A stretch of 64,000 nucleotides of DNA. Source: Nitrosopumilus sp. (GTDB taxonomy: Archaea > Thermoproteota > Nitrososphaeria > Nitrososphaerales > Nitrosopumilaceae). The notes beneath the pieces were generated by a model. It was not told the DNA's origin, ran no database searches, and saw only the letters and a list, made by a program, of their open reading frames with translations. The translations under genes and the position numbers were made by a program. Location: the NCBI GenBank assembly GCA_965203315.1, contig CBDBCE010000004.1, positions 224,001 through 288,000 on the forward strand, read 5' to 3'. Shown here piece after piece: positions 9,320 to 30,207 of this stretch (position 1 is the stretch's first letter; each line of letters opens with the position of its first letter).

Positions 9320-9354
9320 TTGTCAGTTAACGCAAATATGTCTCCTTTCCTAGT

Positions 9355-9870: not shown

Positions 9871-9872
9871 AC

Positions 9873-11543: not shown

Positions 11544-11550
11544 AAGATCA

Positions 11551-12603: not shown

Positions 12604-12739
12604 TCTAGATTTGTGTCATTGTGATAATATTAGACAGTTTCTATATTGTTGAATGATCGTGTTTTAGACTCTGTATGGTGCGTAAAGTGTTCATGAATAT
12701 GTCGACTAGGTTGATCTAGTAAACAGTCACTTGTATTGT

Positions 12740-12806
12740 AGACTATATGCGTATTTCTTACATCATACTCACGTTTAAGGTATAATAAAACACAAGTGTA
12801 ATTTCT
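12740..12806. mobile_element. MITE-B left half, truncated by the IS66 end
   Basis: AGACTATATGCGTATTTCTTACATC..GTGTAATTTCT followed directly by GTAAGCG. Confidence 0.8.
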
Positions 12807-13144
12807 GTAAGCGGTTAGCCTGACAACGATCTTGTGGGGTTCTTTTAACTTAATGGGGGGTTAAGATTAAGTTGTAGGTATTTCGAGAAACGCACGGTAT
12901 GCAACTTAAAACAGCAATAATCTACAATGGGTGATCTAACCATTTTTCATGACTTGTAAAATTTTGAGAGAATGTTGCGTGAAAACTATCGACCCCCCCG
13001 TTAAGTTAACCATATGTGAAGAAGTCGATCAGAGTACATTCAGATGATACAAAGCATGCAGGTCGATCCAAGCGATCATCTGTAAAGCGATCTAAAAGAG
13101 GAAATGCAAACAAACAGATTACCCATCCAAAAAGTAAAAACAAG

Positions 13145-14152: not shown

Positions 14153-14345
14153 CGTACGGGTTCTGTTTGAGATATCACTCGGCAAGTTAAATGTACAGAT
14201 TTTGACGAATGGACGAAGAATGATACTGAGTTAACCACTCGAATGGATATATGTTCGCAGTCCTTTACATGGGAACACATCCCTAGCGTAAGCTATACAC
14301 AATAGTCGTGAATCAGAGTAAATCTTTATAAGCTATTCACATGGA
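14153..14345 (+). ncRNA. Putative bridge/seek RNA in the IS110 3' non-coding region
   Basis: Internal loop with GGGTTCT (14158-14164) and AAGTTAA (14184-14190) matching both halves of the target; second loop with ATGGATA (14243-14249) matching the right end. Confidence 0.7.
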
Positions 14346-14356
14346 TAAAAGAACCC

Positions 14357-14623
14357 AACGAAGCTTGTCGTAAATTCGGAGTTCATTTAGCTAATGCTGC
14401 AGATGATCTATACACGTTTGTGCTATACTATGGTATGGAATACACAAACAACAGAGCAGAGCGCGCTATACGACCAATGGTACTATTCCGCAAGGTAACT
14501 CAACGTATCGTATCTGAGGAGAGTAAAAGACGAGTTGGCAATATCTTTACATGTGTAACAACATGGGAGCAACAAGGTCTCAACGTCTATGATACACTCC
14601 TAAAAGTTGTGCATGAGACCTAA
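14357..14623 (+). pseudogene. IS66 transposase C-terminal fragment
   Basis: DLYTFV..EYTNNRAERAIRPMVLFRKVT motif. Confidence 0.85.
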
Positions 14624-14631
14624 CCTCATAC

Positions 14632-14664
14632 AAAAAATCCATCCAACGTAAATCGAAAAGATCC
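14632..14664. mobile_element. Solo right end of the IS6 parent / MITE-A
   Basis: AAAAAATCCATCCAACGTAAATCGAAAAGATCC, identical to 27392-27424. Confidence 0.85.
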
Positions 14665-14807
14665 GTATGAAACGCAGGAAAAAGCGATCTTTAGTACGTA
14701 ACATGTATAACACAAAGGGTGTAGAAGGGTCTAGAACACCTTCTACTAAGTTGTTAAGTACAACTTGTCGCCAATAGATACTAATAGATGTAGTTATATT
14801 AATTTTT

Positions 14808-14894
14808 GGGCATGTGCCAGAGCACGGTTAAATGGGACTTGTCGCCAACAAGTTGTTAAGTACTTCGTGGGTTCGAATCCCACCATGCCCACCA
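14808..14894 (+). tRNA. Non-canonical class II tRNA-like gene: GCC anticodon, long variable arm, A73, encoded CCA
   Basis: Acceptor GGGCATG/CATGCCC, T-arm GTGGG-TTCGAAT-CCCAC, anticodon stem ACTTG/CAAGT with loop TC-GCC-AA, 13-nt variable region, 3' ACCA. Confidence 0.85.
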
Positions 14895-14923
14895 AATATT
14901 CTGATTCACGTTCAGACGTCTCA

Positions 14924-15062
14924 AGACTGTATGCGTATTTCTTACATCATACTCACGTTTTAAGGTACAATAAAACACAAGCGTAATTTCTAGAGTCAAA
15001 TTGATTCATTGCTGTCATCTTTGATGTTGGTGTGGGCATTCTTAATAATATGCATACAGTCT
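14924..15062. mobile_element. MITE-B copy
   Basis: AGACTGTATGCGTATT..AATATGCATACAGTCT; flanks do not form a TSD. Confidence 0.9.
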
Positions 15063-15171
15063 ATTAGTAAAATACATAATCCCCTAATCTGACGATACAT
15101 GCAATGAGTATCTGCATAGAGTTAGAACAATATGTGAAAGAAACTAGTTGCCTACAGATGACGCGATTCGC

Positions 15172-15328
15172 TATCCATTATCCATTATCCATTATCCATT
15201 ATCCATTATCCATTATCCATTATCCATTATCCATTATCCATTATCCATTATCCATTATCCATTATCCATTATCCATTATCCATTATCCATTATCCATTAT
15301 CCATTATCCATTATCCATTATCCATTAT
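15172..15328 (+). repeat. Perfect heptanucleotide tandem repeat (TATCCAT)22
   Basis: 22 full units plus 3 bp, ending 32 bp upstream of the RM gene start. Confidence 0.95.
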
Positions 15329-15360
15329 ATGATGACACAAAGTTTGAGGGGTGCCTCTAG

Positions 15361-18300
15361 ATGGGCACCTCAAAGGCATCAATCTTTGATGATGTGCTAT
15401 GTATAATACGAGCATCTGCGACTAGTACCTCTGATCTCGGTAAACGGTTCGAGAGACTGACCAAAGACTTTTTCAAGATAGATTCAATGTATAGTAGACG
15501 ATTCAGACGCGTCTATCTGTGGTCAGAGTGGCCCAAACGAGACGGCACAGACACGGGAATCGATATTGTGGCAGAACAGTTTGATGGTACACTCTGTGCT
15601 GTACAGTGCAAGTGCTATGATGACTATGCCGGTCTAGACATGAAGTCGGTTGCCAAGTTTCTGGCCAAAGCAAACTCGCTTGGTATAGAGAACAAGATTC
15701 TAGTGTATACAGGCGATACATTTACTAGTCATGCACAAAAGTTATTGCTTGATTCCAAGTGTTCCATAATAGATCAAGAACACTTTCGTAGTTCTAGTAT
15801 CGATTGGAGTGATTATCCAAAACTTGTACGAGTCAAAGATCAAAAACAGCTCAGACCTCATCAGGTATCTGCACTAAAAGACGTGATACATGGATTTCAA
15901 AAATATGATCGTGGTAAACTGATCATGGCGTGTGGTACAGGCAAGACTCTAACAGCACTGCACATTGCAGAAGAACAGGTCGGTACAGGCGGTATCGTAC
16001 TGTATGTTGTACCTTCTATCTCTCTGATACTACAGAGTATGCGAGAGTGGTCCGACAACGGTACCATACAACATAGTTACATGGCTGTATGTTCAGATAA
16101 ATCAACAGGCGAGGATGGTTCCATAACAGAACTAGAGTCACCTGTATCTACAGATCATACTACCTTGCGACCATACATTGTATCACGACCAAAAGATGCA
16201 ATGACGGTAATATTCTCTACGTATCATTCTATAGACGTTATAAAACAAGCTGCAAAAAATATACAGTTTGATCTGATACTATGTGACGAAGCTCATCGTA
16301 CAACAGGAGTAGAAGACAAGTCGTTCTTTACAGCTGTACACAAGGACACAAACATACACGGCAAGAAACGACTCTACATGACTGCTACACCTCGTGTGTA
16401 CAGCGATATTATACAAGCCAAGATGGGCAAGGTAATCTATTCTATGGATGATGAAGAGAGATATGGACCAACATTCCATAGACTGAGTTTTACAGCTGCA
16501 GTACAACAAAAGGTGCTCTCTGACTTTAGAGTCAAGATTGCAATCGTACCAGCTGATAAGATAGACGCACAGTTTCAGCAATCGGTAACAGACGAGGACC
16601 ACTCCATACCGTTAGACGAACGTACGTTACTTGCAGCTGTATGGCACGGCATACAGTATCCAGATGATAATAAAACACCAAAACTGTTACAACGTGTTAT
16701 TGCATTTGCAAATCGTATAGACCGTTCTCAAATGTTTGCAGGCGAGATAACAGACGGAAACAACATTGATCGTAGTTTTGCAAGTATCGTATCACAGTAT
16801 GAAGAAAAAAAGAACACAGGACATAAAGTCCAAGTCAAACACATGGACGGCAAGACTAGGGCAATAGAACGCAGAGACAAACTACGTTGGTTAGACGAGA
16901 GTACTGATGATCCCAACACTTGTAGAATAGTCTCTAATGCCCGATGTCTATCTGAGGGTATAGACGTACCTGCTCTGGACGGTGTAATCTTTTTAAATCC
17001 GCGCAAGTCTCGAGTCGATGTAGTCCAGTCTGTAGGTCGAGTCATGCGTAGATCAGCTGGTAAGAAATATGGCTATGTGATATTGCCGGTTGCGATCCCA
17101 GCTGGTGTAGAATACCACAAGGCACTAGACAACAACAAGACCTTTGCTGTCGTATGGCAGGTACTGAACGCACTACGATCACATGACGAGTCGTTTGGTG
17201 CCGAGATCAACAGTCTGATACTGGACAAAAACACAGAGAATACGAGTCCCACTCCTAGAATCAGTGTATCTGTTTTAGATGATACATTTGTCGAGAGTGA
17301 ACCGATTACAAAGTTCTTTGATCATGTAAAGTCTCAACTGGTCAAAAAGGTAGGAGATGTAGACTATTATGACAAGTATGGTGAAAAGATTGGTTCTGCA
17401 GCTAGTACGATACAGTCTAGAATCGAAAATCTGCTAAAGACAAATGATACCATACAACACGAGGTATCTAAATTTCATAAATCACTACAAGATCTGATAA
17501 ACGATACCATATCTGAATATGATACTGTACAGGCCCTAGCACACCACATGGTACTTGCTCCTGTATTTGATGGGCTATTTACAGGACAGTTCACATCATA
17601 CAATCCGATATCTAGAGCATTTGAAGATATCATACGTACCATGGGACTACGCGAAGAGCTCGAGATCTTGGAGGAATTTTATGATGAGGTACAGCAAGAG
17701 ATCAAGAACATCAATACCGGTACAGCAAGACAAGAGTTCATCAAGAGAATATATGGAAATTTCTTTGAATCTGCTGATAAAAAAGGAACTGAACAACACG
17801 GTATCGTATACACACCTGTACAGATCGTCGATTTTATAATACATAGTGTACAGTATATTCTCAAGAAGGAATTCAACACCGAATTTGCAGACCGACAAGT
17901 CAAAGTTCTAGACCCATTCACAGGCACAGGAACGTTCCTTGCACAACTGATAAACTCGGGATATCTGGGTGAGAACATTTATGAAAAATACAAACACGAC
18001 CTGTACGCAAATGAACTGATCCTACTAGCGTATTATGTTGCAACCGTAAACATCGAGACGGTATATTCCAGTGTACGAAACGGACACAGACATGTTCCGT
18101 TTGACGGTATCAGTTACACAGATACTCTAAAGATAAATCCACTATATCGCACAGACGAGAGACATAGAATACAACTCAAACCATTCACAGGTCAGTTCAA
18201 ACAGGCACACGAACGCGTACATGCACAACGGTGGTCTCATTTACACGTGATAATGGGGAATCCACCTTATTCTGCCAAACAAAGCAACTACAATGATCAA

Positions 18301-20022
18301 AACCAAAACATACAGTATCCTGATCTCGACAAAAGAATTGGAGATACATATCTCAAAAGAGTCAAAGAGATCAACCCAAACATTGGACTAACGACATCAC
18401 TACGAGATTCTTATCTTCGTTCACTCCGTTGGGCATCAGATAGAATCGGCGAATCAGGCATAATTGGCTTTGTAACAAACGCAGGATTTATCAGATCTGA
18501 CGCTGGTGCAGGCGTCCGCGCCTCTCTCCACGAAGAATTCACAGACATTTACTGCTTTGACCTGCGTGGAAATCAACGAACGCAGGGAGAAATATCAAAG
18601 AAAGAAGGAGGAAAAATATTCGGTTCAGGCTCGCGCGCACCAGTCGCCATCACAATACTAGTCAAAAACCCAAACAAGAAAAAACACACCATACATTACA
18701 AAGATATCGGCGACTATCTATCCAGAGAAGAAAAACTAGACACAATATCAAAATACAAATCCATCCAACATATCAAAGACTGGGATACCATCACACCCGA
18801 CAAGCACCACGACTGGGTTGGTCAACGCTCCGACGAGTTTGAACAGTACACAGCAATGGGCAACAAAGAGACCAAGGCTGGTAAAGAGGTCACTGCAATG
18901 TTCAAGTTATATTCGAGTGGTGTAAAAACACATCGCGACGTATGGGTTTACAATTCATCCAAAGAAATTTTATCAAAAAATATGAAACGAACCATTGATT
19001 ACTGCAACAAACAAGATTTGTCAAATCCCATACTTGATCCCAAATTTGTAAAATGGAGTCCAGGACTCACAGATAGATTAAATAAAACTAAACCAAAGTT
19101 TGATAATTCACAAATTCGACTTTTAGCATACAGGCCATTTTTTAAACAATATGTATATTTCGATAAAACATTCATTGAAGTACTATCACTCACTCCAAAA
19201 TTCTTCCCAGACAAAACATCTAAAAATCTAGTAATTATTGTACCATATCGACACGGAGGATTACCCTCTACATTCATAACTAATGTAGTTCCAGATTTAC
19301 AGACCATTCAAAATGATCAATGCTTTCCTTTGTACACATACGAGAATGATAAGAAAACAATCAACATTACAGATTACATATTAACACAATACCAAGATCA
19401 CTACAACGACAAGGCAATAACCAAAGAGGACATCTTTTACTATACGTATGGTCTATTACACCATGAAAAATACAAAAAGAAGTTTGCAAGCAATCTGTCC
19501 AAAGAACTACCAAGAATTCCAATGGCTCCAAACTTTCAAGCATTTGTCACAGCTGGACGCAAACTAGCAGATCTACATCTAAACTACGAGACCTGCAAAA
19601 AGTACCCACTCAAACCTAAAGCCAAATTTGGCAAGCTAGTAAAGATGGCATTCCCCAAAGTAACAAAAAACGGTAAAAAGATTCCAGACAAGACACGACT
19701 ATTCATAAACGGCATCGAAGTCTTTGACCTACCTGAAATAAAATACACAGTAAACGGCAGAACCCCAATCGAATGGATCATAGACCGATACCGCAGAACC
19801 GTAGATAAAGACAGTGGCATAGTAAATGATCCAACTGAAACAATGACTGAAGAAAAGACAATAGCAATGATTCAACGACTCGTACACGTAAGTGTCGAAT
19901 CTGACAAGATCATCAAAGAACTATCCGAAGAAGAGTTTGAACCGAAAGCGTGGAAACCGAAACCCTCTGGTCTAGATAGATACACCAACTCTAAAAACTA
20001 TCAATCAAAATTAAGAGGTTGA
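15361..20022 (+). CDS. Type ISP single-polypeptide restriction-modification enzyme (LlaGI/LlaBIII-like)
   Basis: Mrr-like nuclease (GIDIVA..AVQCK), SF2 helicase (MACGTGKT, DEAH, TATP, QSVGRVMR), N6-adenine MTase (DPFTGTG, GNPPY), C-terminal target-recognition region. Confidence 0.93.
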   Translation: MGTSKASIFDDVLCIIRASATSTSDLGKRFERLTKDFFKIDSMYSRRFRRVYLWSEWPKRDGTDTGIDIVAEQFDGTLCAVQCKCYDDYAGLDMKSVAKFLAKANSLGIENKILVYTGDTFTSHAQKLLLDSKCSIIDQEHFRSSSIDWSDYPKLVRVKDQKQLRPHQVSALKDVIHGFQKYDRGKLIMACGTGKTLTALHIAEEQVGTGGIVLYVVPSISLILQSMREWSDNGTIQHSYMAVCSDKSTGEDGSITELESPVSTDHTTLRPYIVSRPKDAMTVIFSTYHSIDVIKQAAKNIQFDLILCDEAHRTTGVEDKSFFTAVHKDTNIHGKKRLYMTATPRVYSDIIQAKMGKVIYSMDDEERYGPTFHRLSFTAAVQQKVLSDFRVKIAIVPADKIDAQFQQSVTDEDHSIPLDERTLLAAVWHGIQYPDDNKTPKLLQRVIAFANRIDRSQMFAGEITDGNNIDRSFASIVSQYEEKKNTGHKVQVKHMDGKTRAIERRDKLRWLDESTDDPNTCRIVSNARCLSEGIDVPALDGVIFLNPRKSRVDVVQSVGRVMRRSAGKKYGYVILPVAIPAGVEYHKALDNNKTFAVVWQVLNALRSHDESFGAEINSLILDKNTENTSPTPRISVSVLDDTFVESEPITKFFDHVKSQLVKKVGDVDYYDKYGEKIGSAASTIQSRIENLLKTNDTIQHEVSKFHKSLQDLINDTISEYDTVQALAHHMVLAPVFDGLFTGQFTSYNPISRAFEDIIRTMGLREELEILEEFYDEVQQEIKNINTGTARQEFIKRIYGNFFESADKKGTEQHGIVYTPVQIVDFIIHSVQYILKKEFNTEFADRQVKVLDPFTGTGTFLAQLINSGYLGENIYEKYKHDLYANELILLAYYVATVNIETVYSSVRNGHRHVPFDGISYTDTLKINPLYRTDERHRIQLKPFTGQFKQAHERVHAQRWSHLHVIMGNPPYSAKQSNYNDQNQNIQYPDLDKRIGDTYLKRVKEINPNIGLTTSLRDSYLRSLRWASDRIGESGIIGFVTNAGFIRSDAGAGVRASLHEEFTDIYCFDLRGNQRTQGEISKKEGGKIFGSGSRAPVAITILVKNPNKKKHTIHYKDIGDYLSREEKLDTISKYKSIQHIKDWDTITPDKHHDWVGQRSDEFEQYTAMGNKETKAGKEVTAMFKLYSSGVKTHRDVWVYNSSKEILSKNMKRTIDYCNKQDLSNPILDPKFVKWSPGLTDRLNKTKPKFDNSQIRLLAYRPFFKQYVYFDKTFIEVLSLTPKFFPDKTSKNLVIIVPYRHGGLPSTFITNVVPDLQTIQNDQCFPLYTYENDKKTINITDYILTQYQDHYNDKAITKEDIFYYTYGLLHHEKYKKKFASNLSKELPRIPMAPNFQAFVTAGRKLADLHLNYETCKKYPLKPKAKFGKLVKMAFPKVTKNGKKIPDKTRLFINGIEVFDLPEIKYTVNGRTPIEWIIDRYRRTVDKDSGIVNDPTETMTEEKTIAMIQRLVHVSVESDKIIKELSEEEFEPKAWKPKPSGLDRYTNSKNYQSKLRG

Positions 20023-20078
20023 ACTATCGATGTGGTGTTTGAATAACTTGTTATCTCACACTGCATTAGACCTATAAG

Positions 20079-20116
20079 TGAAATATTCGCCCCGCTATGA
20101 CCGTAGTCCGGACACC
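20079..20116 (+). repeat. Solo IS3-like terminal motif, also at about 22771-22813 and 63543-63583
   Basis: TGAAATATTCGCC..CAGTCAGGACAC consensus in three places. Confidence 0.55.
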
Positions 20117-20118
20117 GT

Positions 20119-20236
20119 GGATCTTTTCTATTTACGTAGGATGATTTTTTGCAAGGATTTTTTCATAATCTTCCTTTATGGATTCTTGTAGTGATTTTTC
20201 TATACCTCTTCTATCTCACGTAAGTCGAAAAGATCC
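20119..20236. mobile_element. MITE-A copy (reverse orientation)
   Basis: GGATCTTTTCTATTTACGT..ACGTAAGTCGAAAAGATCC. Confidence 0.9.
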
Positions 20237-20283
20237 TAATACACAAAGAATTTATGTCTTAAATAATAGATATTAGATCAGAA

Positions 20284-20691
20284 TTGGCTACTGTTCAAGT
20301 AAAGATTAAAGAAAAATCAGATATTGATAGAGTTCTATCTCATATCAAGCAATTGCAAACTAGTATGACCCAACTACAAACTAGCATAGATAGACTCGCT
20401 CAACAAAACATAGACATGAAGAGCATAAAACCAAAGATTGTCGATGCACTTGATGTCGATTTTGTAAAACAGGTATGTTATGAGAATAACTTTGATTGTA
20501 ATGTAATAAAATTGATTGTGATTTATAAGCACGACGATTATGACTTTGTAATTGATACAATATTTGAAAGATTTGGCAAATTGGAAGATCAATTTCCAGA
20601 CTTGGATCTACAAATGTTATTTTTTGATGTATCTAAAATTAAACCAAGTCGCTTAGATAACACAACCACTGTTTTTAAGAAAGAAGAGTAA
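20284..20691 (+). CDS. Putative antitoxin (degenerate MNT-like) of HEPN pair 1
   Basis: Paralogue of 23122-23526 (DFVKQVCYENN..IKL.VIY.HDD); directly upstream of a HEPN-like gene. Confidence 0.6.
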   Translation: MATVQVKIKEKSDIDRVLSHIKQLQTSMTQLQTSIDRLAQQNIDMKSIKPKIVDALDVDFVKQVCYENNFDCNVIKLIVIYKHDDYDFVIDTIFERFGKLEDQFPDLDLQMLFFDVSKIKPSRLDNTTTVFKKEE

Positions 20692-20694
20692 TTC

Positions 20695-21029
20695 ATGTCA
20701 TGGCATTACAAAAGGTATAAACGTAATAAGGAACTATTTGAACAGTTACGTAAGAACGAATTAAACTGTTATGACTGGCAAGTAACAATACTATTTTATG
20801 CGGCATTACATTTGGTTAATGACTTTTTTGAACGAAATGGATACATATCACCTGATAATCGTAAACTACGAAAAAAGATAATAAAAAACATCTCTCATAT
20901 TTGAAGAATAGCTATAATTTTTTATTTGATCTAAGTATACTTGCTCAATATGAAGAATTGGAGATAACTGTAAAAGACAGAGATAAAGCACTGACTGCTT
21001 CATCAATTTTAGAATCAAAAATTGGATAG
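20695..21029 (+). pseudogene. HEPN-like toxin, frameshifted
   Basis: DWQVTILFYAALHL; adding one A in the A-run at about 20883-20888 restores a reading frame collinear with 23532-23867 to TAG at 21029. Confidence 0.8.
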
Positions 21030-21147
21030 TGTCTGTCTTGTCTCAAGTATGCATAATTTGTTCTGATCAGTATACTGATTCAAGATAGTGTGCGACAACT
21101 AGATCTTATCAGATGCCACACTGTTTATTTTATCTAGCCGAGATTAC

Positions 21148-21262
21148 GGATCTTTTCGATTTACTAGAGATAGTGTTTCACAAAACTTTTTCTGCAATTT
21201 TCCATTATGGTGATGTAATGCTTTTTCCATAACCCTTCATCACACGTAAACCGAAAAGCTCC
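21148..21262. mobile_element. MITE-A copy (reverse orientation)
   Basis: GGATCTTTTCGATTTAC..ACGTAAACCGAAAAGCTCC. Confidence 0.85.
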
Positions 21263-21318
21263 TTTCAATTGATATGATGTTAATTTCCTATCTCTCTTCA
21301 ATACAGATTCTATCAATA

Positions 21319-21645
21319 TTATATGTCCAATCTACAGGCTTGCCCATAACAAGCATAAATACTCCAATACACCAATATGGCAAAAGAGACATAGCAAGAC
21401 AGTGATGCTATATCACTAGTTTTGTTGTTAGAAAATTGTCCCAGGATTATAGGAATCCATGCTGGAAAACTAACAAGAAACACGATAAATCTAAGATCAG
21501 ACATCCCAGAAAGTACATCACCTGAAGCAAACAAATAAAAAGAATTGAGAAGAACAACATTGGATAAAATAACACAAAGACCAACCCCATTCATTTTACG
21601 CAGATGAGAAAAAATAGAACTAGTATTTGGCATGCCACAACGCAA
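21319..21645 (-). CDS. Small 3-TM membrane protein (candidate immunity protein)
   Basis: Three hydrophobic segments; overlaps or abuts the 3' end of the secreted-protein gene. Confidence 0.55.
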   Translation of the reverse strand: MRCGMPNTSSIFSHLRKMNGVGLCVILSNVVLLNSFYLFASGDVLSGMSDLRFIVFLVSFPAWIPIILGQFSNNKTSDIASLSCYVSFAILVYWSIYACYGQACRLDI

Positions 21646-22495
21646 CGTAAGGACCCCACCAATATGCAGGCCAAGAATAAATTAGCACTTCAGGATTAGG
21701 TTCTGGGCTTTGTGAGTTATAATAATATCCGTTTTCGCCTTTATATATAAAAGCTTGACTTCGCATCTCATTATTGCTACAACCATGATATGTCGTACCT
21801 TTAGCATAATCCATACCGTATGAAAATGTAGCATATAATGCAACTACGTGGTATCCATTAGAGACTAGTAATGATTTTACTTTAACTAGTGAAGTGTAAT
21901 CGATACTAGCAACTATGGGAGGGGATGTATGAGGATCATTGAATCCTCCACCGCATGCAGTATCTGGTGCACCGTGATGTATAGGAACAATACTATCTAT
22001 ACCAAAAACAGTCACAATTGGTGTTTGTAAATAGTCATAGTACGCTGGAGTTATATCGTTTGTAGAACCGATTGCAAAATTGGTAAATAGTGCCTTAAAC
22101 TTTCCAGACTGAAACTCTTGTAAAGCACGTTCGAGTTCTACGTTGCTTGTTCCTAATTCATTTACCTTACCCACTGAACCAACTGTTGCGTTCATTATTG
22201 CATTATTATGTATTGCAAAATCTAACGCAACGTCAATGTCTTTTTGTGTTATTTTAGGATCTTTTATTGCAGATGTGTCAAATTCGATGTTCTTATTTTC
22301 TTCATATATGACAAAAGGTTCCATGACTCTGAATGCATGATTGATCTCTTGTAATGTATAATCTTGCAGTATATCGTCTAATTCCTCTGTTTGTGTTTGA
22401 TTAGATACGCCCGTATCGATGTTTTGTGCCAATACTGTGCCGGGCACTAAGAGTATGGCGAACAGACGTGATGTAGTAATTTGTACCTTGTTCAT
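21620..22495 (-). CDS. Secreted protein with signal peptide, acidic N-region and Trp/Cys-containing C-terminal domain
   Basis: MNKVQITTSRLFAILLVPGTVLA-Q signal; C-terminal EPNPEVLIYSWPAYWWGPYVALWH. Confidence 0.75.
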   Translation of the reverse strand: MNKVQITTSRLFAILLVPGTVLAQNIDTGVSNQTQTEELDDILQDYTLQEINHAFRVMEPFVIYEENKNIEFDTSAIKDPKITQKDIDVALDFAIHNNAIMNATVGSVGKVNELGTSNVELERALQEFQSGKFKALFTNFAIGSTNDITPAYYDYLQTPIVTVFGIDSIVPIHHGAPDTACGGGFNDPHTSPPIVASIDYTSLVKVKSLLVSNGYHVVALYATFSYGMDYAKGTTYHGCSNNEMRSQAFIYKGENGYYYNSQSPEPNPEVLIYSWPAYWWGPYVALWHAKY

Positions 22496-22656
22496 GTTAT
22501 TAATTGTTGCATAACTTTTTTACTATATATGGAAGTCGTATCTATGATACGTAATGTTTTTATATGTGCCCTAGAAGAGTCGATTCTGTCCGCTTACTAA
22601 TCTTGATATATCTACCAATTATCAATAAATTTCGTAAACATTAGACGACTCAAGGT
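22412..22656 (-). promoter_or_regulatory. Promoter plus signal-peptide module shared with 39583-39838
   Basis: About 245 bp of clear homology; TATAAAAA box followed by the near-palindrome CGTATCATAGATACG. Confidence 0.75.
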
Positions 22657-22886
22657 CTGATCGTAACATGTATTGCCACAACAAACCACAAAGATCATAT
22701 GCTACTAATCCTTCTACAAAACAACTGTGATCTGCATTCGTTTTAGTTAAGGGAGACAAGGATCTACGAGTGAAATATTCGCCTCAAACTCGACCCACAG
22801 TCAGGACACTTTCTCTCGCCATGAATCAACTCACACGACACACAACAGAACTCGATTGGCGATTTGTTAGTATTAGGGGTATTCGA

Positions 22887-22964
22887 AGATCTTTTCAATT
22901 TACATGAGATGGCATCTCGCAAGGTTTTCTGTACCGATTCACTCCACGTAAACCGAAAAGATCC
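22887..22964. mobile_element. MITE-A short variant (reverse orientation)
   Basis: AGATCTTTTCAATTTACATG..CACGTAAACCGAAAAGATCC. Confidence 0.85.
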
Positions 22965-23121
22965 AGTCTAGATCAATATATTGAAAATTCGAGCTAGTGT
23001 ATGAACGTTATCTATATCGCAGAATATCTATGTTGTGCTGTTTCTGGGCTAAAAACGGCATGGATGTCATACATAAAGTATTTATGTATTATGCGGTAAA
23101 TGTCTTTGGTGCAATTAGAAA

Positions 23122-23526
23122 ATGACTAGTGTTGAGCTAAAAAAGCCTGAAAAATCAGAAATAAGTGAGGTGTTGGCCAACAACAAACATCTACTAGACA
23201 CAACGAATAAAATACAAATTACAGTGGGAGTAGATCAAAGCCGAAAACCAAACATGGATAAAATAAAACCAAAAGTTATCGAAGCGTTTGATCTTGACTT
23301 CATAAAACAAGTATGTTATGAAAATAATGTCAATTATGATACTATAAAACTGCTTGTAATTTACGAACATGATGATGACGAGATTGCTGTAGATGCAATA
23401 TTTGATCAATTTCATAAATTAAATAAACAATTCCTAGACTTGAATATAGAGATGGCTTGGTATAACACATCTGAAATTAAATCTAGTGATCTAAATAACA
23501 CCACTATGATTTTTAAGAGAGACTAG
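23122..23526 (+). CDS. Putative antitoxin (degenerate MNT-like) of HEPN pair 2
   Basis: Paralogue of 20284-20691. Confidence 0.6.
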   Translation: MTSVELKKPEKSEISEVLANNKHLLDTTNKIQITVGVDQSRKPNMDKIKPKVIEAFDLDFIKQVCYENNVNYDTIKLLVIYEHDDDEIAVDAIFDQFHKLNKQFLDLNIEMAWYNTSEIKSSDLNNTTMIFKRD

Positions 23527-23531
23527 TACTC

Positions 23532-23867
23532 ATGACATGGCACTACAAAAAATATAGACACAACAAGAAATTATTTGATTATCTACACAAAAATACATCG
23601 AATTTTTGTGACTGGGAAGTAATTACATTGTTTTATTCAGCGTTGCATCTAATCAACGACTACTTTACAAAAAATGGACCTAACGTTCCTATAAATCACA
23701 GCACTAGAAATATAATGATAAAGCAACATCTTTCAGATATAACAGATGAATATTATACTCTATACTTACTAGGTAGACATGCACGATATAACCGATTCAA
23801 AATAACTGAAAAGCGTAGAGATATAGCATTAAATGCTTTCTTAACCTTAGAATCAAAAATTAGATAG
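23532..23867 (+). CDS. HEPN-like toxin (intact frame)
   Basis: DWEVITLFYSALHL, NHSTR and GRHARY motifs typical of HEPN-like nucleases. Confidence 0.7.
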   Translation: MTWHYKKYRHNKKLFDYLHKNTSNFCDWEVITLFYSALHLINDYFTKNGPNVPINHSTRNIMIKQHLSDITDEYYTLYLLGRHARYNRFKITEKRRDIALNAFLTLESKIR

Positions 23868-23888
23868 TATGCCTAGTTCCAAGTCGCA

Positions 23889-24037
23889 GGATCTTTTTGA
23901 TTCCGGTGGAATGGCACTTTGCAAGGTTTTCTAATTTTCCTTTATAGATCTTGTAGTGGATCTTTTCGGTTTACGTGGAGTGAATCGGTACAGAAAAAGC
24001 CTTGCGAAATACCATCCCACGTAAATCGAAAAGATCC
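23889..24037. mobile_element. Truncated MITE-A (23889-23957, reverse) abutting a short MITE-A (23958-24037, forward)
   Basis: Two GGATCTTTT starts; the second ends CCATCCCACGTAAATCGAAAAGATCC. Confidence 0.85.
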
Positions 24038-24094
24038 CTTTGTACTATTATTTCGCTTTAAATTCAATTCTACACATTACAGTATGATGTCAAG

Positions 24095-24268
24095 GGTTCT
24101 GTTAACATGACGGCGGTTGGCATTTTCTGCACAAAATTTTCGAAAAATTTTGCAAAATATAGAAACGACACCATATCGGCTATCGTAAATTACTATTGTG
24201 AGTCTCATGTTGTGCGTTCTTTGAGATAACGTCATCACGATCTTGACCACTGTCAATTGAACAGAACC
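24095..24268. mobile_element. MITE-D (IS6-like GGTTCTGTT ends)
   Basis: TIR GGTTCTGTT / GTCAATTGAACAGAACC; reverse-complement homologue at 53620-53796. Confidence 0.85.
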
Positions 24269-24901
24269 GATTATTAGAATTTATATATATTCATAACCGA
24301 ATTTCTCTTTCTTGTGATAATCTTTCATGTTTCCTGAGTCTATCTCTCGTGTACCTGTGATGCTACGCTGTCGCGGATTTTCCAAAATGAATTTTTTTAT
24401 TTTACGTTCTATAACTTTCATGGGATGTTTTCGATTTACGTTGGATGGTTTTTTAGACGACTTTTTCCTAAAACTACCCAACACTTCAAAAATAAAACAA
24501 TTGTGTGATATTTACTAGATTTCTATTTGTAATTTAGTATATGATAGAAAACTTTAAATGAATAAAATATTTTTAACTAAAAAATTAACTTTTTTTAAAA
24601 AAAGTGGTATATACTAGTATATTTCTACTACACATGTGAAGCAAAATCTAGAGCAAATCTGCATGTCTGATGCTACAAAAGAGTATTTGGAAATGTGCAA
24701 GTGTGTCAAAAAAGTACAAGATAACCACTACAAAGTCAAGATTCAAACAGGAGATGAAACATACGATGTTATGGGTGAACCAGGAAATTGGTTTTGCACT
24801 TGTAAAGGCTACAAGTTTGGAAAAAAGAGATGCAAACATGTCAAAATGGTTGATATCGTAGTGGAGGTTGGGACAAAAACAAAAGAAACTACGCTAGAGT
24901 C

Positions 24902-26393
24902 AGCCCTGTCGGATAAATAGGCGTAAAATGGAGAAAAGTGGCATCATGGAGACGATATCACCCCCAATGTTGTAGAGATCGGGCTCAATTTGAGTCAGAT
25001 TGGCTGAATTATGGATGTGTGTTTGCCTTGATAAGAAAATTTTGCCCAAACAATCTACTCATTAGATCTAATTTATTTACGCAAATTATTAATGTTACTT
25101 GATTACCATAGTTATAAAATAAAACTGTCAACAGTTGACAATGACGATTCATTCGATGGTACTTGTTAATCAAGTGGTCAAGGCAGCAAAGAAAGCGACG
25201 AAAAAACGTGCCAAGAAAATTGAAAAGAAATTAGGCTGTTCTGGAATAGGACGAAAGCTCACCAAAGCTACAAAACAAATTATGTACGTTATGAGTGCAG
25301 ATCCAGAGAAATGGCGTAAAGATTTGAAAAAAGAGAACAAGAAAAAGGGTAGGGGTAGACCTCACAAATATCCTGAATCATTGTTTGAGAAATTGGCAAT
25401 GGTACAAGAGTATTTTGATTTGACATATAGAGACTTGGAAGGATTTGCGTTAGAATGTTATGGAAAAGAATTTGCTCCAGATCATGATACGCTACAAGCA
25501 AGAATTTCTAATATGAAAGTAGATACAAGAAAACATATTAAACTTGAATCTGCGAAAATTACACTAGCAATCGACAGTTCAGGCCTGGTACAACATGCAG
25601 GTGGATTTTGGATTGAACATAAACACCATGTTGAGAAGAAAGGATTTGTAAAATTACACATTTGTATAGACGTAAAAACGCTAAAAATTCTAGAGTTTTC
25701 AGTAACTACAGATGAAGTTCATGACAATTCACAGCTACAAAAACTGGTAGGTGATTCAATAGCACAGATCAAAGATTATAATGATATTGAAGAGCTTTTA
25801 GCAGAGCTCTTGGCAGATGGTGCGTATGACGCAAATGATAATCATGTATTTTGCAAGGAAAATAACATCATAAATAAAATCAAAGTAAGAATAAGTTCGG
25901 TTATTGGTGATTGTGAAGAAAGAAACAAGGCGGTTATTGCACAGCTCTTAAATAACAAAAACATGGATTTGAGTGAATTAACTAAAGAACAAAAACTCGA
26001 AAATCGTGCAAAATGGAAGAAACGAGTAGGATACGGTAAACGTTCGCTAGTAGAAACAGTATTTTCGATGTTCAAAAATCTGTTTGGTGAACATGTTCGA
26101 TCAAGAAAATGGGAAAATATTGTTCAAGAGTTACGTTTGCGAGTTGCAACGTATAATCATTTGATAGATTTAGCTGCATAACTAGAAATTAATACTTCAA
26201 CAAAGTATTGATTTACAACTCTGTTATCTTGCATGAATTGTTGTTTGTGAATCATCAAATCATGACATAGCTAAAACGACTATCACTGCATGCAAATATA
26301 CGATCGGCTTGAGATGAGGTCTCGTAGTCCGATCTTGACGTCCAATATCCAGTAAATTTGCCACTTTTAGTGATTTTATTATCCGACAGGGCT
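24902..26393 (+). mobile_element. IS5-family (IS903-like) element
   Basis: TIR AGCCCTGTCGGATAA / TTATCCGACAGGGCT; 8-bp TSD CTAGAGTC. Confidence 0.92.
25135..26181 (+). CDS. IS5-family DDE transposase
   Basis: GRGRP, AIDSSG, KLHICID, ADGAYD, GYGKRSLVETVFSMFK. Confidence 0.92.
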   Translation: MTMTIHSMVLVNQVVKAAKKATKKRAKKIEKKLGCSGIGRKLTKATKQIMYVMSADPEKWRKDLKKENKKKGRGRPHKYPESLFEKLAMVQEYFDLTYRDLEGFALECYGKEFAPDHDTLQARISNMKVDTRKHIKLESAKITLAIDSSGLVQHAGGFWIEHKHHVEKKGFVKLHICIDVKTLKILEFSVTTDEVHDNSQLQKLVGDSIAQIKDYNDIEELLAELLADGAYDANDNHVFCKENNIINKIKVRISSVIGDCEERNKAVIAQLLNNKNMDLSELTKEQKLENRAKWKKRVGYGKRSLVETVFSMFKNLFGEHVRSRKWENIVQELRLRVATYNHLIDLAA

Positions 26394-28338
26394 CTAGAGT
26401 CACTAAATGATGGCAAGATTTGTTGTAAACATTGTGGCACACTAGAGACTGTAAAAAATGGCATCAGACCTAACAAAAATTATGATAATCAAAAATATTA
26501 CTGCAAGATATGCGAGGTATCGTTTTCTGGAAATGTGGGATTTGAGGGACTAGCCGCGTCACCAGAGCATGTAACTGATGCAATACATTTACATCTTACA
26601 GGATCTAGCTTGAGTGAAGTCGTACAATTTTTGGCAAAGAAAGGTGTCAAAGTTGGGTGTACCACCATTCACGACTGGACTGTAAGATACGTCAAATTGA
26701 TGGATGAGTACATTTCAACACTCGCACCTCAAATTGGTGAGATATATCATGCTGATGAAGTGTGGTTCGAGATCAATGGCAAACTGCATTATCTCTTTGC
26801 GATGCTGGATCGTAAAACAAGGTTTTGGCTAGGCAGTCAAGTTGGCAAGAAGAAAAATAAAGCACAAGTCAATAAATTATTTAAAGAAGCAGAAAAGATT
26901 GCACAAAAAACACCATCTGTGCTGATAACTGATGGCGCAGCTTGTTATGAAGCATCGTTTAAGAAGATATTTGCAAAAGCAAAATCAGGCAAGTCATCTA
27001 TTCACATTAGAGAAATTCACATGGCAGGTGATCATGTACACAACAATGAGATTGAGAGTTTTAATGGAAAGTTTAGACATGTTGAACAAAAAATCAAAGG
27101 CTTCAAAAATGCTTTTCTTATTAGTGGAATTAGAATACATTACAATTACATTAGACCACATATGGGTTTAAACAGTGACACACCAGCCGACAGAGCTGGA
27201 ATTATCATAAAAGGAGCAAATAAATGGCGCACATTAATACTGAACGCAGTGAAAACTCTGTATAATTTTAAATTTGTCTAGTAAATTCTAACAGAATTAA
27301 ATAACAAGTGTTTTTTTAATTGACATTTTAATACAAAGTTTGAATATTTCGCTTCAATAATTCCATCAAGTCTTGCAATGATGAGTCTGTAAAAAAATCC
27401 ATCCAACGTAAATCGAAAAGATCCCTTTCATGTTTCCAGTAGGGGGTCTAGTATCTGATTTAACTATTTCGTCTATGTTCTTTTTCAACATCTTTATTGT
27501 TTTATCATGTAGGCACAAGCCAGAGTCCGAAATACATGCTCGTAAAAGTGTGTCATCGCTAACAACCCTTCGACCACATTCCTCTAACCAACTAAAGTAT
27601 TTTTGAGTGAATACTTTTATCATTTCTATCTCTGGCTTTGTACGCATATCTGTCGCGATCTCTACTATTCTATATCTAAAATGATGATGAGAATCCCATG
27701 CTAGTCCTTCATCGTCAGTCCAATAGTCTTCTGCATGTTCAAGGTCATATTCATTTGCATTAACATTGCGCTCATCAACATATTCACTCAATCTTTTAGC
27801 AATCTTGTTGGGGTCTTCTTTACGCAGTTCAGTGTACGAACAACTCTCGTCGTCTTCATGTTTACAAGGTTTCACTCTAGGCTAGACTTGGTACTATACA
27901 CATTATTAGTATTTCGTCACTATTCTAGTGGATATTGTGACAATTACACAAACTCTGGAAACTAACAATAAACCCAAAAAACATACATTTATGATCTAGA
28001 AAATACTTTTAGCTATTCGGTGGGTGGACTTGGTCAATATGACAATCTCGCAGATATAATCAATTTAATATGAGGCCAAGATTTGTGCTAATTAATAATA
28101 CCATTAAATCAAAAATCTTCCAATTTCACAACTGTTGAGTCAATACCTGTCTCTAACTCATGTCTACAACTACACGTTGTGGTATGTTTAGCATGTTTGA
28201 TGAAAATTTGACCACATATCTACTGATCCGATATTTGACCAAGTTAATCTGTGGATTGGTGACTATCTCACCTCTGTCTTTTAAACTAGCCTGTCCTGAT
28301 CTGTAAGCATAAATACCACTCACCGTTGATTGTGATCT

Positions 28339-28950
28339 ATGTCAAAACTCGTAATGTCGTATCCGGGATATGTCTGTGCACCATATCTGCATAACCATGA
28401 CTCTGTTGAGTTAAAGGAGACATGGCTCAAGTCTACAAATATAAAAAAACTGTTCTTTGTGACGGGAACATTCTCTAATGAGAGCAAGCCGTTCTTTACT
28501 GCGTCTGCTAATCACTATCTCCTTGCAAAATTTAAAGACAATGCCAAGATTGTCAAAGATCTAGACAGATACAATCAAAGCAAGATGACGTTTGTATTTG
28601 ATATACGTGATGAACTCTTTGAGCGTCAAGTACAAGGCAATGCCAATCTTATCTCTATGTACTATTTGGATTATGGGACAAAAGATGATGATCTAAATGA
28701 GATTGCCAACCTCTTACTAAAACGAGAAAAGATAGCTAGGGCGGGATTTGGTAGCCTGAGTACATTTTGTACTGTTCCTTCTAAATTCACATTTCCTTAT
28801 ACTGACAATGTGGTTGTAATAGAGGTCGTTGGAGAGAAGGGCTATCCTAGTGTCAACAAGTACTGTGAACAGACTCGCAGAGATGCAAATCGAAAGGGAC
28901 TAACCATGACAAATATGTTGAGCTTGTCACTCTTGGATCATCTAAAATGA
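28339..28950 (+). CDS. Hypothetical protein (backbone)
   Basis: 203-aa ORF with host-like composition; upstream TATA-like box. Confidence 0.7.
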   Translation: MSKLVMSYPGYVCAPYLHNHDSVELKETWLKSTNIKKLFFVTGTFSNESKPFFTASANHYLLAKFKDNAKIVKDLDRYNQSKMTFVFDIRDELFERQVQGNANLISMYYLDYGTKDDDLNEIANLLLKREKIARAGFGSLSTFCTVPSKFTFPYTDNVVVIEVVGEKGYPSVNKYCEQTRRDANRKGLTMTNMLSLSLLDHLK

Positions 28951-29017
28951 TCTATTCTGTTGGAGTGTCTGCGTCATCTTTCAAAGGGTTAAATATTCCA
29001 CTAGAGTCTGACTTGAC

Positions 29018-29428
29018 ATGAGCAAGCCCTCTGATCTAGGTTCATTAAAGATTGGTTCATACATACTATTACCTCACTCTGATCAACCTAGTGGCGAACC
29101 TTGTCGTATAGTTGAATATGATACATCAAAACCAGGCAAGCACGGTGCTGCAAAAGCTAGAATTGTTGCAGAAGGAATCTTTGATAAACAGAAACGTCCT
29201 CATGTAGGTCCTGTAAGTATGCAAGTTCATGTTCCGATGATCAACAAAAAGATGGGTCAGATCATCTCTATCAACGGTGACATAGTTCAGGTAATGGACT
29301 CTGAGACCTTTGAGACTATTGATATAACATTAATTGATGATGATGTACAAGGCAAGCTAGAGAACGGTCAAAATGTCGAATATTGGCTGGTCATGGATAA
29401 GACTAAAATTATGCGTATAAAGAACTAG
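29018..29428 (+). CDS. eif5a: Translation factor aIF-5A
   Basis: SKPGKHGAAK hypusine motif. Confidence 0.97.
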   Translation: MSKPSDLGSLKIGSYILLPHSDQPSGEPCRIVEYDTSKPGKHGAAKARIVAEGIFDKQKRPHVGPVSMQVHVPMINKKMGQIISINGDIVQVMDSETFETIDITLIDDDVQGKLENGQNVEYWLVMDKTKIMRIKN

Positions 29429-29517: not shown

Positions 29518-30207
29518 ATGAAGTTGGCAGCCCTCTTTTCAGGCGGTAAAGACAGTACATATGCATTACATGTATCTAATAGTCTTGGACATCAAGTAAA
29601 GTGTCTATTGAGCATATCTCCCAAGTCTGACTCTAGCATGCTACTTCACTATCCTAACATAGATCTGACATCTATGCAGGCGAAACTCTTGAATATACCT
29701 CATCTGTATGCGTCATCTGACTCTGATGATACAGATGAACAGATCGCATCTCTAGAATCACTACTACTCCAAGCCAAGAGAGACTATGATGTTAAAGGTC
29801 TAGTCCATGGAGGAATAGCAAGCAGATTTCAACTATGTAACTTTGAGTCGGTCTGCTCTAAGATTGGACTAGAGGTACTATCTCCTCTATGGGGACTAGA
29901 TGCATATCAATACATGCACGATCTGATCACTGGAGGTTTTGTGTATATCATAACATCTGTATCTGCTGACGGCCTAGATCAACGATGGTTAGGTCGGGCA
30001 ATAACATTAGACGAACTTGATGATCTAGCAGTATTGTCCAAAAAGTTTGGGTTCAATCTAAACTTTGAGGGTGGTGAGGCAGAGACACTAGTGCTCTCAT
30101 GTCCTCTGTTTAATGGTAGTATCAGAGTATCTCACTCTCAGATATACTGGGATGGATACATAGGAAGGTTTGAAATATTGGACGCGTACACAACGTATGA
30201 TGCTTGA
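29518..30207 (+). CDS. dph6: Diphthine-ammonia ligase
   Basis: LFSGGKDS PP-loop, EGGEAET. Confidence 0.9.
   Translation: MKLAALFSGGKDSTYALHVSNSLGHQVKCLLSISPKSDSSMLLHYPNIDLTSMQAKLLNIPHLYASSDSDDTDEQIASLESLLLQAKRDYDVKGLVHGGIASRFQLCNFESVCSKIGLEVLSPLWGLDAYQYMHDLITGGFVYIITSVSADGLDQRWLGRAITLDELDDLAVLSKKFGFNLNFEGGEAETLVLSCPLFNGSIRVSHSQIYWDGYIGRFEILDAYTTYDA

Follow-up and report, generated by a model that had tools for sequence, protein, structure and literature searches.

MITE copies at rearrangement joints in a probable accessory-DNA mosaic of Nitrosopumilus

MITE-bounded gene shuttling has been documented mainly for bacterial resistance genes. Among insertion sequences of the IS6 family, IS26 forms arrays of IS copies and passenger segments, and the compound transposons of the family are described in its review as invariably having direct repeats (PMC7986276). 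The same review counts two IS6-family MITEs, which are thus rare in its reference collection. In bacteria, MITE-flanked class 1 integrons are reported from Acinetobacter, and so is a MITE-297 structure flanking 76 kb (PMC6382973), and in the archaeon Sulfolobus islandicus IS elements, MITEs and toxin–antitoxin (TA) genes, namely HEPN-NT and VapBC pairs, are described as co-enriched in one variable region (PMC3718332).

Here, we describe positions 20119–24037 of a 64-kb stretch (the window) from a Nitrosopumilus sp., an ammonia oxidiser by its archaeal AmoA match (387 bits). The locus resembles IS26/IS6 pseudo-compound transposons and translocatable-unit arrays in its DDE_Tnp_IS240 parent, its 8-bp duplications and its GG tips, and resembles IS26 arrays in that copies alternate with passengers at joints that lack duplications. 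Nevertheless, there are clear differences. The bounding units are 115-bp MITEs instead of ISs, their orientation is not consistently direct, and the parent, at 1504 bp and with an N-terminal SWIM finger, departs from the norm of the IS6 family; furthermore, duplication-flanked units with inverted ends occur in this genome, unlike in IS6 compound transposons as the review describes them. As in the bacterial composites, where two copies of one MITE are reported to flank passengers and behave as a composite transposon (PMC6382973), copies of one MITE bound the cargo, but the host is archaeal, the cargo comprises TA-like pairs and secreted proteins where the bacterial composites carry resistance genes, many loci lie in one chromosome and the array has no outer duplication. 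The S. islandicus association is on the scale of a region, whereas here it is confined to within 300 bp of a module and the surrounding 10 kb is not MITE-rich.

The preliminary description of this DNA had called the array integron-like. That likeness is one of look only, small gene units with short repeats between them: the units are delimited by MITEs, whose terminal repeats are those of the parent IS, and not by attC sites, the middle unit lies on the minus strand, and the pair modules have their own conserved upstream region. For an IntI-type recombinase, PF00589 gave two matches genome-wide, which lie on contig C1 and not on that of the window, and matched none of the 54 window ORFs scanned. 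The integron comparison therefore fails; the MITEs mark rearrangement joints, and the stretch is not an integron-like cassette collector. The reading that we favour, as somewhat probable, is an accessory-DNA mosaic at a synteny break, stitched by IS6/MITE-driven transposition and rearrangement.

The MITE family and its parent element

When up to three mismatches are allowed, the window contains 16 occurrences of the terminal repeat GGATCTTTTCGATTTACGTGG, against 0.01 expected, and an element profile search of the whole 2.47-Mb genome found 196 non-overlapping loci, 128 of them full length with a mean identity of 80% to the consensus. The MITE was found in no other genome searched, relatives included. 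It is built from the ends of a 1504-bp IS6-family element, which match model positions 1–50 and 43–117, and it is classed as a MITE by these resident-IS ends, the absence of an ORF, its length of 115–118 bp, its 196 loci and its occasional 8-bp duplications.

Five copies lie in 20119–24037 when shortened and truncated forms are counted. Copy 1 (20119–20236, plus strand) is full length and 82% identical to the consensus, without a flanking duplication; copy 2 lies at 21148–21262 (plus); and copy 3 (22887–22964, plus) has an internal deletion and measures 78 bp. The fourth locus is composite: a truncated plus-strand copy (23889–23957, model positions 1–74) is abutted by an inverted 80-bp short form (23958–24037, minus), which over 41 nt shows 100% complementarity to copy 3 at its right end. 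The preliminary description had reported four delimiters in one orientation, at 20119, 21148, 22887 and 23889; the four loci were found, but the last includes an inverted fifth copy, so the orientation is not uniform. Three full copies and the truncated one are direct with each other and one is inverted. Close by lie MITEs of two further families, a second (about 174 bp, 85 copies) at 24095–24268 and a third (about 141 bp, 74 copies) at 14924–15062, both on the plus strand. In contigs from four public runs, in which rare variants are dropped, the array has one fixed arrangement with no variation.

As previously noted, matching 8-bp flanks are missing at all four loci; no array MITE or pair of array MITEs has a duplication. 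This absence had been offered as a sign of accretion, for which it has no discriminating power, since it is the genome norm: duplications (at most one mismatch) accompany 8 of the 128 full-length copies and are absent from 120, although about 23 would be expected at 80% mean identity. An orientation bias was likewise looked for genome-wide and was not seen, as neighbouring MITEs less than 3 kb apart are direct in 16 cases and inverted in 17.

The parent element that had been placed downstream of the array was located at 24423–27424 (plus), bounded by an 8-bp duplication CTTTCATG; a nested 1.5-kb DDE_Tnp_1 element (24894–26393, plus), with a 9-bp repeat CTAGAGTCA at both edges, interrupts the SWIM-DDE frame of the IS. 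A 307-aa ORF of the IS matches DDE_Tnp_IS240 (PF13610, E 4e-16, 59.8 bits against a cut-off of 27), as in IS240/IS26-type transposases, and the IS ends read GGATG.../...GATCC, with the GG tips of the family. Its 1504 bp and extra SWIM zinc finger exceed the usual 700–890 bp, a range given for most members in the family review, which lists a few longer ones (PMC7986276). Four copies elsewhere in the genome are 100% identical, each with one 380-aa SWIM-plus-DDE frame, and exact 8-bp duplications border 5 of 9 IS or long elements, showing that the parent IS is active; a flank swap between two IS copies shows a 148-kb inversion.

Gene modules between the MITEs

A Type ISP restriction–modification gene of 1553 aa (15361–20022, plus), one of five paralogous loci in the genome, precedes the array, followed at 20069–20115 by a truncated conserved-block remnant, the 3' part of a small minus-strand zinc-ribbon ORF. 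Pair A consists of an MNT-like gene of 135 aa (20284–20691, plus) and a HEPN-like gene (20695–21029, plus) broken into frames of 69 aa and 42 aa; as read from this broken frame, pair A is already decaying. The middle unit carries, on the minus strand, a gene for a 108-aa hydrophobic (membrane) protein (21319–21645) that overlaps the end of a 291-aa gene (21620–22495) with a signal-peptide-like N-terminus; the 291-aa protein matched no Pfam family, and its gene has paralogs at C1 757280–758230 and C1 532432–532911. A 52-aa CxxC...CxxC ORF (22764–22922, minus) with only weak zinc-ribbon matches starts inside MITE copy 3, its 3' part being the conserved block 22761–22886. Pair B is intact in its HEPN-like gene of 111 aa (23532–23867, plus), which follows an MNT-like gene of 134 aa (23122–23526, plus). 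Since pairs A and B share only 65% DNA identity, their duplication is old. The pair modules have a common conserved upstream region, and the second gene is broken or missing in 3 of 9 full modules of this kind.

Neither gene of the pairs matches any Pfam family. In Foldseek searches, the top matches of the MNT-like gene were to MntA (7aer_A, E 2e-4) and those of the HEPN-like gene to HEPN proteins (2hsb, E 0.06, probability 1.0); among 26 profile relatives scanned, one lies above the PF05168 cut-off and three more match PF05168 weakly. The predicted pair complex scored 0.85 against 0.01 for the best control, a score that 116 of 157 solved complexes but only 2 of 215 mismatched pairs reach, with runs agreeing in at least 97% of contacts and a partner pLDDT of 91, although, as solved MntA–HepT complexes exist, this result may reflect likeness to them. 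MNT and HEPN folds thus lie in adjacent genes, and the earlier label antitoxin–HEPN is upheld at the fold level by the Foldseek matches and the predicted complex. The pairs resemble MntA–HepT in being two small adjacent genes, MNT-like then HEPN-like, whose predicted complex passes controls. Unlike MntA–HepT, they are without a Pfam match; the canonical Rx4-6H nuclease motif is not conserved across six HEPN-like paralogs (a histidine follows R59 in only two of the six, whereas H56, R59 and A84-R85-Y86 are invariant), and GS...DxD, the motif looked for in the first gene of MNT–HEPN pairs, was not seen in the MNT-like gene. The pairs are divergent MNT/HEPN-like two-gene modules that are probably TA-like.

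Of 14 MNT/HEPN-like loci, 11 have a MITE within 300 bp, as do 18 of the 30 loci that make up a second two-gene family; for gene proxies the figure is 416 of 2117 (20%), so that TA-like modules are MITE-bracketed at three to four times the rate of ordinary genes. Because of the dependence among paralogous loci, this adjacency is overstated by the binomial p-values (3e-6 and 1e-6). In the 10 kb around the 14 MNT/HEPN-like loci, MITE density is about the mean (1.2 per 10 kb, against 1.1 for the genome).

Paralogy breaks and MITE-cargo-MITE composites

Each segment between the MITEs has its own paralogs elsewhere, and the paralogy stops at MITE ends. At the left, the paralogous match between the Type ISP gene and C1 243754–246798 (95.7%) begins at 15063, right at the end of the third-family MITE, and 15256–20115 is 90% identical to C1 723163–728014 up to 3 bp before MITE copy 1; the block interrupted there does not resume after any later MITE. 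Paralogy of the pair module begins 3 bp after copy 1. Beginning at the outer end of copy 2 and including that MITE, 21147–22157 matches C1 531944–532929 (67%), and the distance from MITE to membrane-protein stop is 56–57 bp in both loci. The match of 22765–22886 to C1 727970–728091 (84%) ends at the left end of copy 3, and the paralogy of pair B ends at the fourth MITE.

In a genome-wide census of 114 low-copy flanks, 38 had paralogy that came to 5 bp or less from a MITE end; uniform intergenic insertion would put about 2–3% of flanks there, a rough estimate rather than a computed one. In 31 of these 38 flanks the paralogy stops, in seven the paralog has a MITE at the same junction, and in none does it continue across, the pattern of a simple insertion, whereas at random positions 501 continue and 66 stop (88% continuing). 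The preliminary description had staked its reading on breakpoints coinciding with MITEs, and in this respect, with 31 stops and no simple insertion, it stands.

In this genome, two MITEs can also move the DNA that they enclose to a new site. Among 139 MITE pairs within 20 kb, four have outer 8-bp flanks that match at no more than one mismatch, two of them exactly, against one match summed over 10 displaced controls, and two of these four duplication-flanked composites have inverted MITEs. One unit (43377–53941), with a 3085-aa ORF and outer flanks TCTGGTGA and TCCGGTGA, fills a gap between ThiDN and ThiC, which adjoin in 20 of 25 congeners; another, C1 1060769–1065753, sits between two genes that adjoin in 22 of 25. 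The window also has a 2136-bp unit at 4724–6859, which is bounded by the perfect duplication GTTTAAAC and consists of a MITE split by a family-3 MITE, a two-gene module and another copy of family 3. The paralogy ends, the adjacency and the composites at sites empty in congeners together bear out the earlier proposal that MITEs are tied to the moving and joining of small accessory modules.

Assembly of the stretch

In the mosaic reading, the IS6 transposase would act in trans on MITE ends, and replicative transposition of the IS6 type within one chromosome would give deletions, inversions and moves of composites in place of simple insertions. These events, with recombination between copies, may leave MITEs at joints without duplications, and could have juxtaposed the Type ISP gene, the two pairs A and B and, between them, the secreted/membrane pair, either by the addition of segments or by the loss of intervening DNA. 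The inverted 8-bp signature expected of replicative inversions was only marginally above the null: the counts were 11 and 12, where the null gave about 7 on average and 10–12 at most. Three tandem copies of the second two-gene family at C1 622.8–626.9 kb have no MITE, so arrays can form without them.

MITEs may instead have inserted singly into tolerant DNA by dispensable modules and have no role in assembly, an explanation that we regard as unlikely though still credible. The pairs are old paralogs at 65% identity; the Type ISP paralog is followed by a pair without any MITE at C1 634.5–639.7 kb, and hence such adjacency need not be MITE-made; the left MITE at C5 219 kb has its own 6-bp flanking repeat. 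MITE–module junctions vary between loci in distance, orientation and even MITE family, the array is unvaried in the contigs of the four runs, and the S. islandicus report places IS, MITE and TA enrichment together in a variable region (PMC3718332). Against this, none of the 38 informative flanks shows the simple-insertion pattern, with 88% continuing at random positions, the share of flanks with paralogy within 5 bp of a MITE (38/114) far exceeds the rough 2–3%, MITE density around the modules is not raised, and duplication-flanked composites exist.

A stronger claim than the mosaic reading, that MITEs are portable ends used by the SWIM-DDE transposase to cut, carry and join conflict modules, with arrays such as 20119–24037 built stepwise as a transposase-driven functional analogue of IS26 resistance arrays or integrons for TA and defence genes, is doubtful. 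What is seen is that MITE copies occupy the seams of duplicated accessory DNA in an ammonia-oxidising archaeon. Were the link causal, a compact archaeal genome would shuffle and spread conflict genes without plasmids or integrons, and it would allow a test of how IS6-type chemistry works on ends that are non-autonomous, among them those of the inverted-end composites, which fall outside the predictions of the IS26 model.

The mechanism put forward in the preliminary description, in which circles of one MITE and a module insert beside a resident MITE to give a direct array without new duplications, is improbable. IS26 is described as forming such arrays (PMC7986276), the IS has the orientation common to the three full copies and the truncated fourth, the MITE with the secreted/membrane pair recurs at C1 532 kb with its 56–57 bp spacing, and the 2136-bp unit resembles a module and family-3 MITE added beside the resident family-3 MITE of a 258-bp variant. 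However, three more copies would match the first in orientation by chance once in eight, close neighbours genome-wide are 16 direct and 17 inverted, the C1 532-kb MITE is opposite to copy 2, and a fifth, inverted copy closes the array. The proposal is not supported, given that orientation count together with the two duplication-flanked composites with inverted MITEs, the left block unresumed after later MITEs, the variable junctions and the MITE-free paralogous locus.

Equally improbable is that MITE-adjacent deletions prune DNA up to a module harmful to lose, such as an addictive TA pair, so that MITEs come to abut such modules: MITE ends do lie 2–23 bp from a conserved promoter-to-terminator unit in pairs A and B and the C5 219-kb locus, enrichment spans two unrelated two-gene families and three MITE families, duplications are absent and paralogy stops at MITEs, but the toxicity of the HEPN-like genes is putative, the second gene is broken or missing in a third of the full modules (3/9), and essential genes should stop such deletions just as well, whereas no more than 20% of genes have a MITE beside them.

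Two further MITE-bracketed cassettes had been proposed in the window. In the supposed gene pair at 53216–53824, most of the second ORF is translated from a MITE copy that belongs to another family. The cassette at 38490–39838 was said to have the MITE on both sides; near 38450 there is only a terminal-repeat remnant of about 18 bp, and on the other side a full MITE lies at 39856–39973.

Anatomy of the array and the origin of its repeats

The array (20119-24037) follows a Type ISP restriction-modification gene (15361-20022) and a 47 bp remnant of a conserved block (20069-20115). It opens with MITE 1 (20119-20236, plus strand) and pair A (20284-21029), the second gene of which is frame-broken; MITE 2 (21148-21262, plus) precedes a 108-aa hydrophobic protein and a 291-aa signal-peptide protein encoded on the minus strand (21319-22495). 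The full conserved block (22761-22886) is followed by MITE 3, an internally deleted 78-bp form (22887-22964, plus), the intact pair B (23122-23867), a truncated MITE (23889-23957, plus), an 80-bp short-form MITE (23958-24037, minus), a copy of the second MITE family (24095-24268) and an IS (24423-27424). The preliminary description counted four delimiters of one orientation; the actual copies number five, of which one has the opposite orientation. The two short-form MITEs around pair B were rejected as sister copies, their flanks mismatching in either sense.

The conserved block encodes, in minus-strand orientation, the C-terminal portion of a small CxxC...CxxC protein and is found at 20069-20115, 22761-22886, contig C1 727970-728091 and contig C5 141368-141424; a MITE lies in or at three of these four copies, in differing positions and orientations. 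The genome holds five paralogous Type ISP loci (15361-20022 and C1 725428, 180141, 246177-250376 and 635750-639705), two of them interrupted, and a relative was found in just 1 of 25 congeners.

The genome (2.47 Mb, 39% G+C, seven contigs) carries archaeal amoA; the window spans 224001-288000 of contig C5. At no more than three mismatches, the window has 16 matches to the terminal repeat GGATCTTTTCGATTTACGTGG, where 0.01 would be expected; across the genome the repeat occurs 174 times. A profile made from 23 copies of MITE family 1 (length 115-118 bp) recovered 196 non-overlapping loci, including 128 of full length, with the strands about equally represented. The two ends of this MITE (model positions 1-50 and 43-117) match those of a 1504-bp IS, which is present in four copies at 100% identity and whose single frame of ~380 aa encodes a DDE_Tnp_IS240 domain together with a SWIM finger. 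Exact 8-bp duplications flank five of nine IS or long elements, and a nested 1.5-kb DDE_Tnp_1 element, bearing the 9-bp repeat CTAGAGTCA on both edges, interrupts the copy at 24423-27424, which has the 8-bp duplication CTTTCATG at its flanks. Since relatives of the transposase elsewhere reach at most 36% identity over a full-length match, no donor lineage can be named. The terminal-repeat pattern found no match in 30 relatives, nor in a one-genome-per-species collection and a metagenome collection, both of which possibly exclude records of this genome.

Neither pair gene matched a Pfam family, and a word-based protein search with both returned own-genome proteins only. The predicted model of the first, MNT-like gene (from 11 paralogs; pLDDT 77, and >83 from residue 41 on) has MntA antitoxins as its best solved-structure matches (7aer_A, E 2e-4), and that of the HEPN-like gene (from six paralogs; pLDDT 83) has HEPN proteins (2hsb, E 0.06, probability 1.0). 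A profile search with the latter gave 2884 representatives at E <=0.001; of 26 that were scanned, one exceeds the HEPN cut-off of PF05168 and another three match it weakly. The canonical Rx4-6H motif is not conserved. The predicted complex of the two proteins scored 0.85 against 0.01 for the best control, passing a mark that solved complexes reached in 116 of 157 cases and mismatched pairs in 2 of 215, with at least 97% contact agreement among runs and a partner pLDDT of 91; this pass may mirror likeness to existing solved MntA-HepT complexes. Members of the family occupy 14 loci of this genome and are absent from 30 relatives, the second gene is broken or missing in three of nine full modules, and pairs A and B share 65% DNA identity.

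Paralogy seams at MITEs and how the array may have formed

We lean towards reading the array as a mosaic in which IS6-derived MITEs form the seams. Paralogy of the Type ISP region with C1 723163-728014 (4.9 kb, 90%) ends at 20115; the paralog goes on with the rest of the conserved block, which is absent after MITE 1, and paralogy of the pair module starts at 20239. Likewise, C1 727970-728091 matches 22765-22886 and ends at MITE 3, C5 141771-141368 matches 22413-22815 and ends at the MITE of the C5 locus, and 21147-22157 matches C1 531944-532929, MITE included.

This pattern was examined genome-wide in 254 flanks of 127 MITE copies. A paralog was found for 140 flanks, compared with 125 of 400 random segments; 24 of the 140 lie in high-copy repeats and for another 76 the MITE lies over 5 bp beyond the end of the paralogy. 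Where it reaches the MITE end (38 flanks), it stops in 31, the paralog junction also carries a MITE in seven and it continues into the other flank in none; the same comparison at 1200 random positions gave 501 continuing flanks and 66 that stop. Replicative inversion would leave inverted 8-bp partner flanks as its signature, and counts of these were just marginally above null.

The alternative that MITEs simply accumulated, without a role in assembling the array, is unlikely. It would suit C1 634.5-639.7 kb, where a pair lies 418 bp after a disrupted Type ISP paralog and no MITE is present, but it does not account for the seams in the array or for the 31 stops and no continuations among the 38 flanks. 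It is also at odds with MITE adjacency: a family 1 or 2 MITE lies within 300 bp of 11 of the 14 pair loci (on both sides at five), and in a second two-gene family 18 of 30 loci are MITE-adjacent and five bracketed, compared with 416 (20%) and 46 (2%) of 2117 gene proxies. The adjacency p-values (3e-6 and 1e-6) are overstated, the paralogs being non-independent. The 10 kb around pair loci holds MITEs at 1.2 per 10 kb; the genome-wide density is 1.1.

Construction by IS26-style targeted addition, as the preliminary description proposed, is improbable and lacks its expected marks. The missing duplications that had been taken as a sign of accretion do not discriminate: only 6 of the 128 full-length MITE copies have exact 8-bp duplications (eight at up to one mismatch). 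Copies average 80% identity to the consensus; were flanks to decay as the MITE does, ~23 would be expected to be duplicated, and in the array the two full-length copies (82% and 79% identical) would mostly have lost theirs anyway. Shared orientation does not discriminate either: among 155 MITE loci neighbours <3 kb apart are direct in 16 cases and inverted in 17, and the MITE 56-57 bp from the membrane-protein gene stop in the window is oriented opposite to its counterpart at C1 532 kb. An integron likeness is not supported: the window's contig has no tyrosine recombinase, transposon ends serve as delimiters and the unit in the middle lies on the opposite strand.

IS26 chemistry inside one replicon leads to deletions or inversions. 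Copy-in transposition inside one replicon would leave MITEs at joints without duplications; IS6 chemistry thus predicts the duplication-free MITE joints that the census shows. Recombination between copies also appears to occur: the inverted, identical IS copies at C1 430005-431508 and 578127-579630 have swapped 8-bp flanks (TGTGAGGA / CTCAACTA), as expected if the two had recombined to invert 148 kb, or else through an assembly alternative. The array may have grown by addition or shrunk by deletion.

Copy-in transposition forming cointegrates is described for the IS6 family (PMC7986276), MITE-bounded composite structures are known in Acinetobacter (PMC6382973), IS, MITEs and TA genes are regionally co-enriched in Sulfolobus islandicus (PMC3718332), and a review of prokaryotic MITEs gives few archaeal cases (PMC10969869). 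In the literature searched, no report turned up of archaeal TA modules bracketed by IS6-derived MITEs.

MITE-bounded units elsewhere in the genome

MITE pairs do move genes in this genome. The outer 8-bp flanks match (up to one mismatch) at 4 of 139 MITE pairs within 20 kb, whereas ten displaced controls gave one match in total; one ground for caution is that duplications are lacking at every MITE and MITE pair of the array. The MITEs are direct and differ by 1 nt in C1 807812-811826 (outer flanks CAACGAAT), and inverted in C1 1060769-1065753 (GTTAAAAG), C1 1691504-1692961 (7/8 matching) and window 43377-53941 (TCTGGTGA / TCCGGTGA). In 22 of 25 congeners the two genes on either side of C1 1060769-1065753 are neighbours separated by 49-399 bp. 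The window unit 43377-53941 sits between ThiDN and ThiC, two genes that are adjacent and ~0.7 kb apart in 20 of 25; in the others they are non-adjacent (two), on different contigs (one) or ThiDN is unmatched (two). The second two-gene family, whose second gene matches the PADLOC candidate PDC-S70 (E 1e-11), is carried by C1 1691504-1692961 and included in C1 807812-811826.

A 12-G run at 43558-43569, 8 bp upstream of the TTG that starts a 3085-aa ORF, may be a slippage switch on expression of that ORF. At 4724-6859, a 2136-bp unit with the perfect 8-bp duplication GTTTAAAC is a family-1 MITE interrupted by three parts in turn: a family-3 MITE, a module of two genes (182 aa and 144 aa; the latter matches PDC-S70, E 1e-11) and another family-3 MITE in direct orientation. 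MITE variants of 250-261 bp contain one family-3 MITE at the same place as in this unit. At C1 622834-626899, three such 182-aa/144-aa modules stand in tandem (period ~1445 bp) with no MITE within 300 bp, which likewise counsels caution.

The second MITE family (~174 bp, 85 copies) has window copies at 24095-24268 and 53620-53796, and ORF 53485-53784 is largely a translated copy. The third (~141 bp, 74 copies), often nested within family-1 MITEs, occurs in the window at 4760-4900, 6635-6775, 14924-15062 and 53000-53137.

Arrangement in public runs and gene neighbourhood

The stretch is present in five public runs of three studies, with no RNA run among those listed. Contigs of four runs (three studies), compared with 18000-28500, show a single arrangement of the array, bridging MITE 1, MITE 2 and pair B to MITE 4 with no differences, a further ground for caution. 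They contain no join across a whole cassette; contigs do not reveal rare circles. A short-sided joint within MITE sequence (21219 to 23992, opposite strands, 31 letters on the shorter side) appears in two runs; such joints most likely come from other MITE copies, though they are indistinguishable from a rare inversion.

No empty-site counterpart of the array was found in relatives: the ABC permease (11551-12603) and diphthamide synthase (29518-30207) are far apart there, so the array stands at a synteny break without an empty site. The interval 12603-29018 separates an ABC-permease block on the left from an aIF5A/diphthamide-synthase block on the right; these blocks being distant from each other in relatives, the array lies at a rearrangement junction. 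The window is syntenic with relatives from ~28 kb onward. Contigs C1 and C5 are identical over positions 1-17739 (17,739 bp), which may be a large repeat or reflect an assembly artefact.
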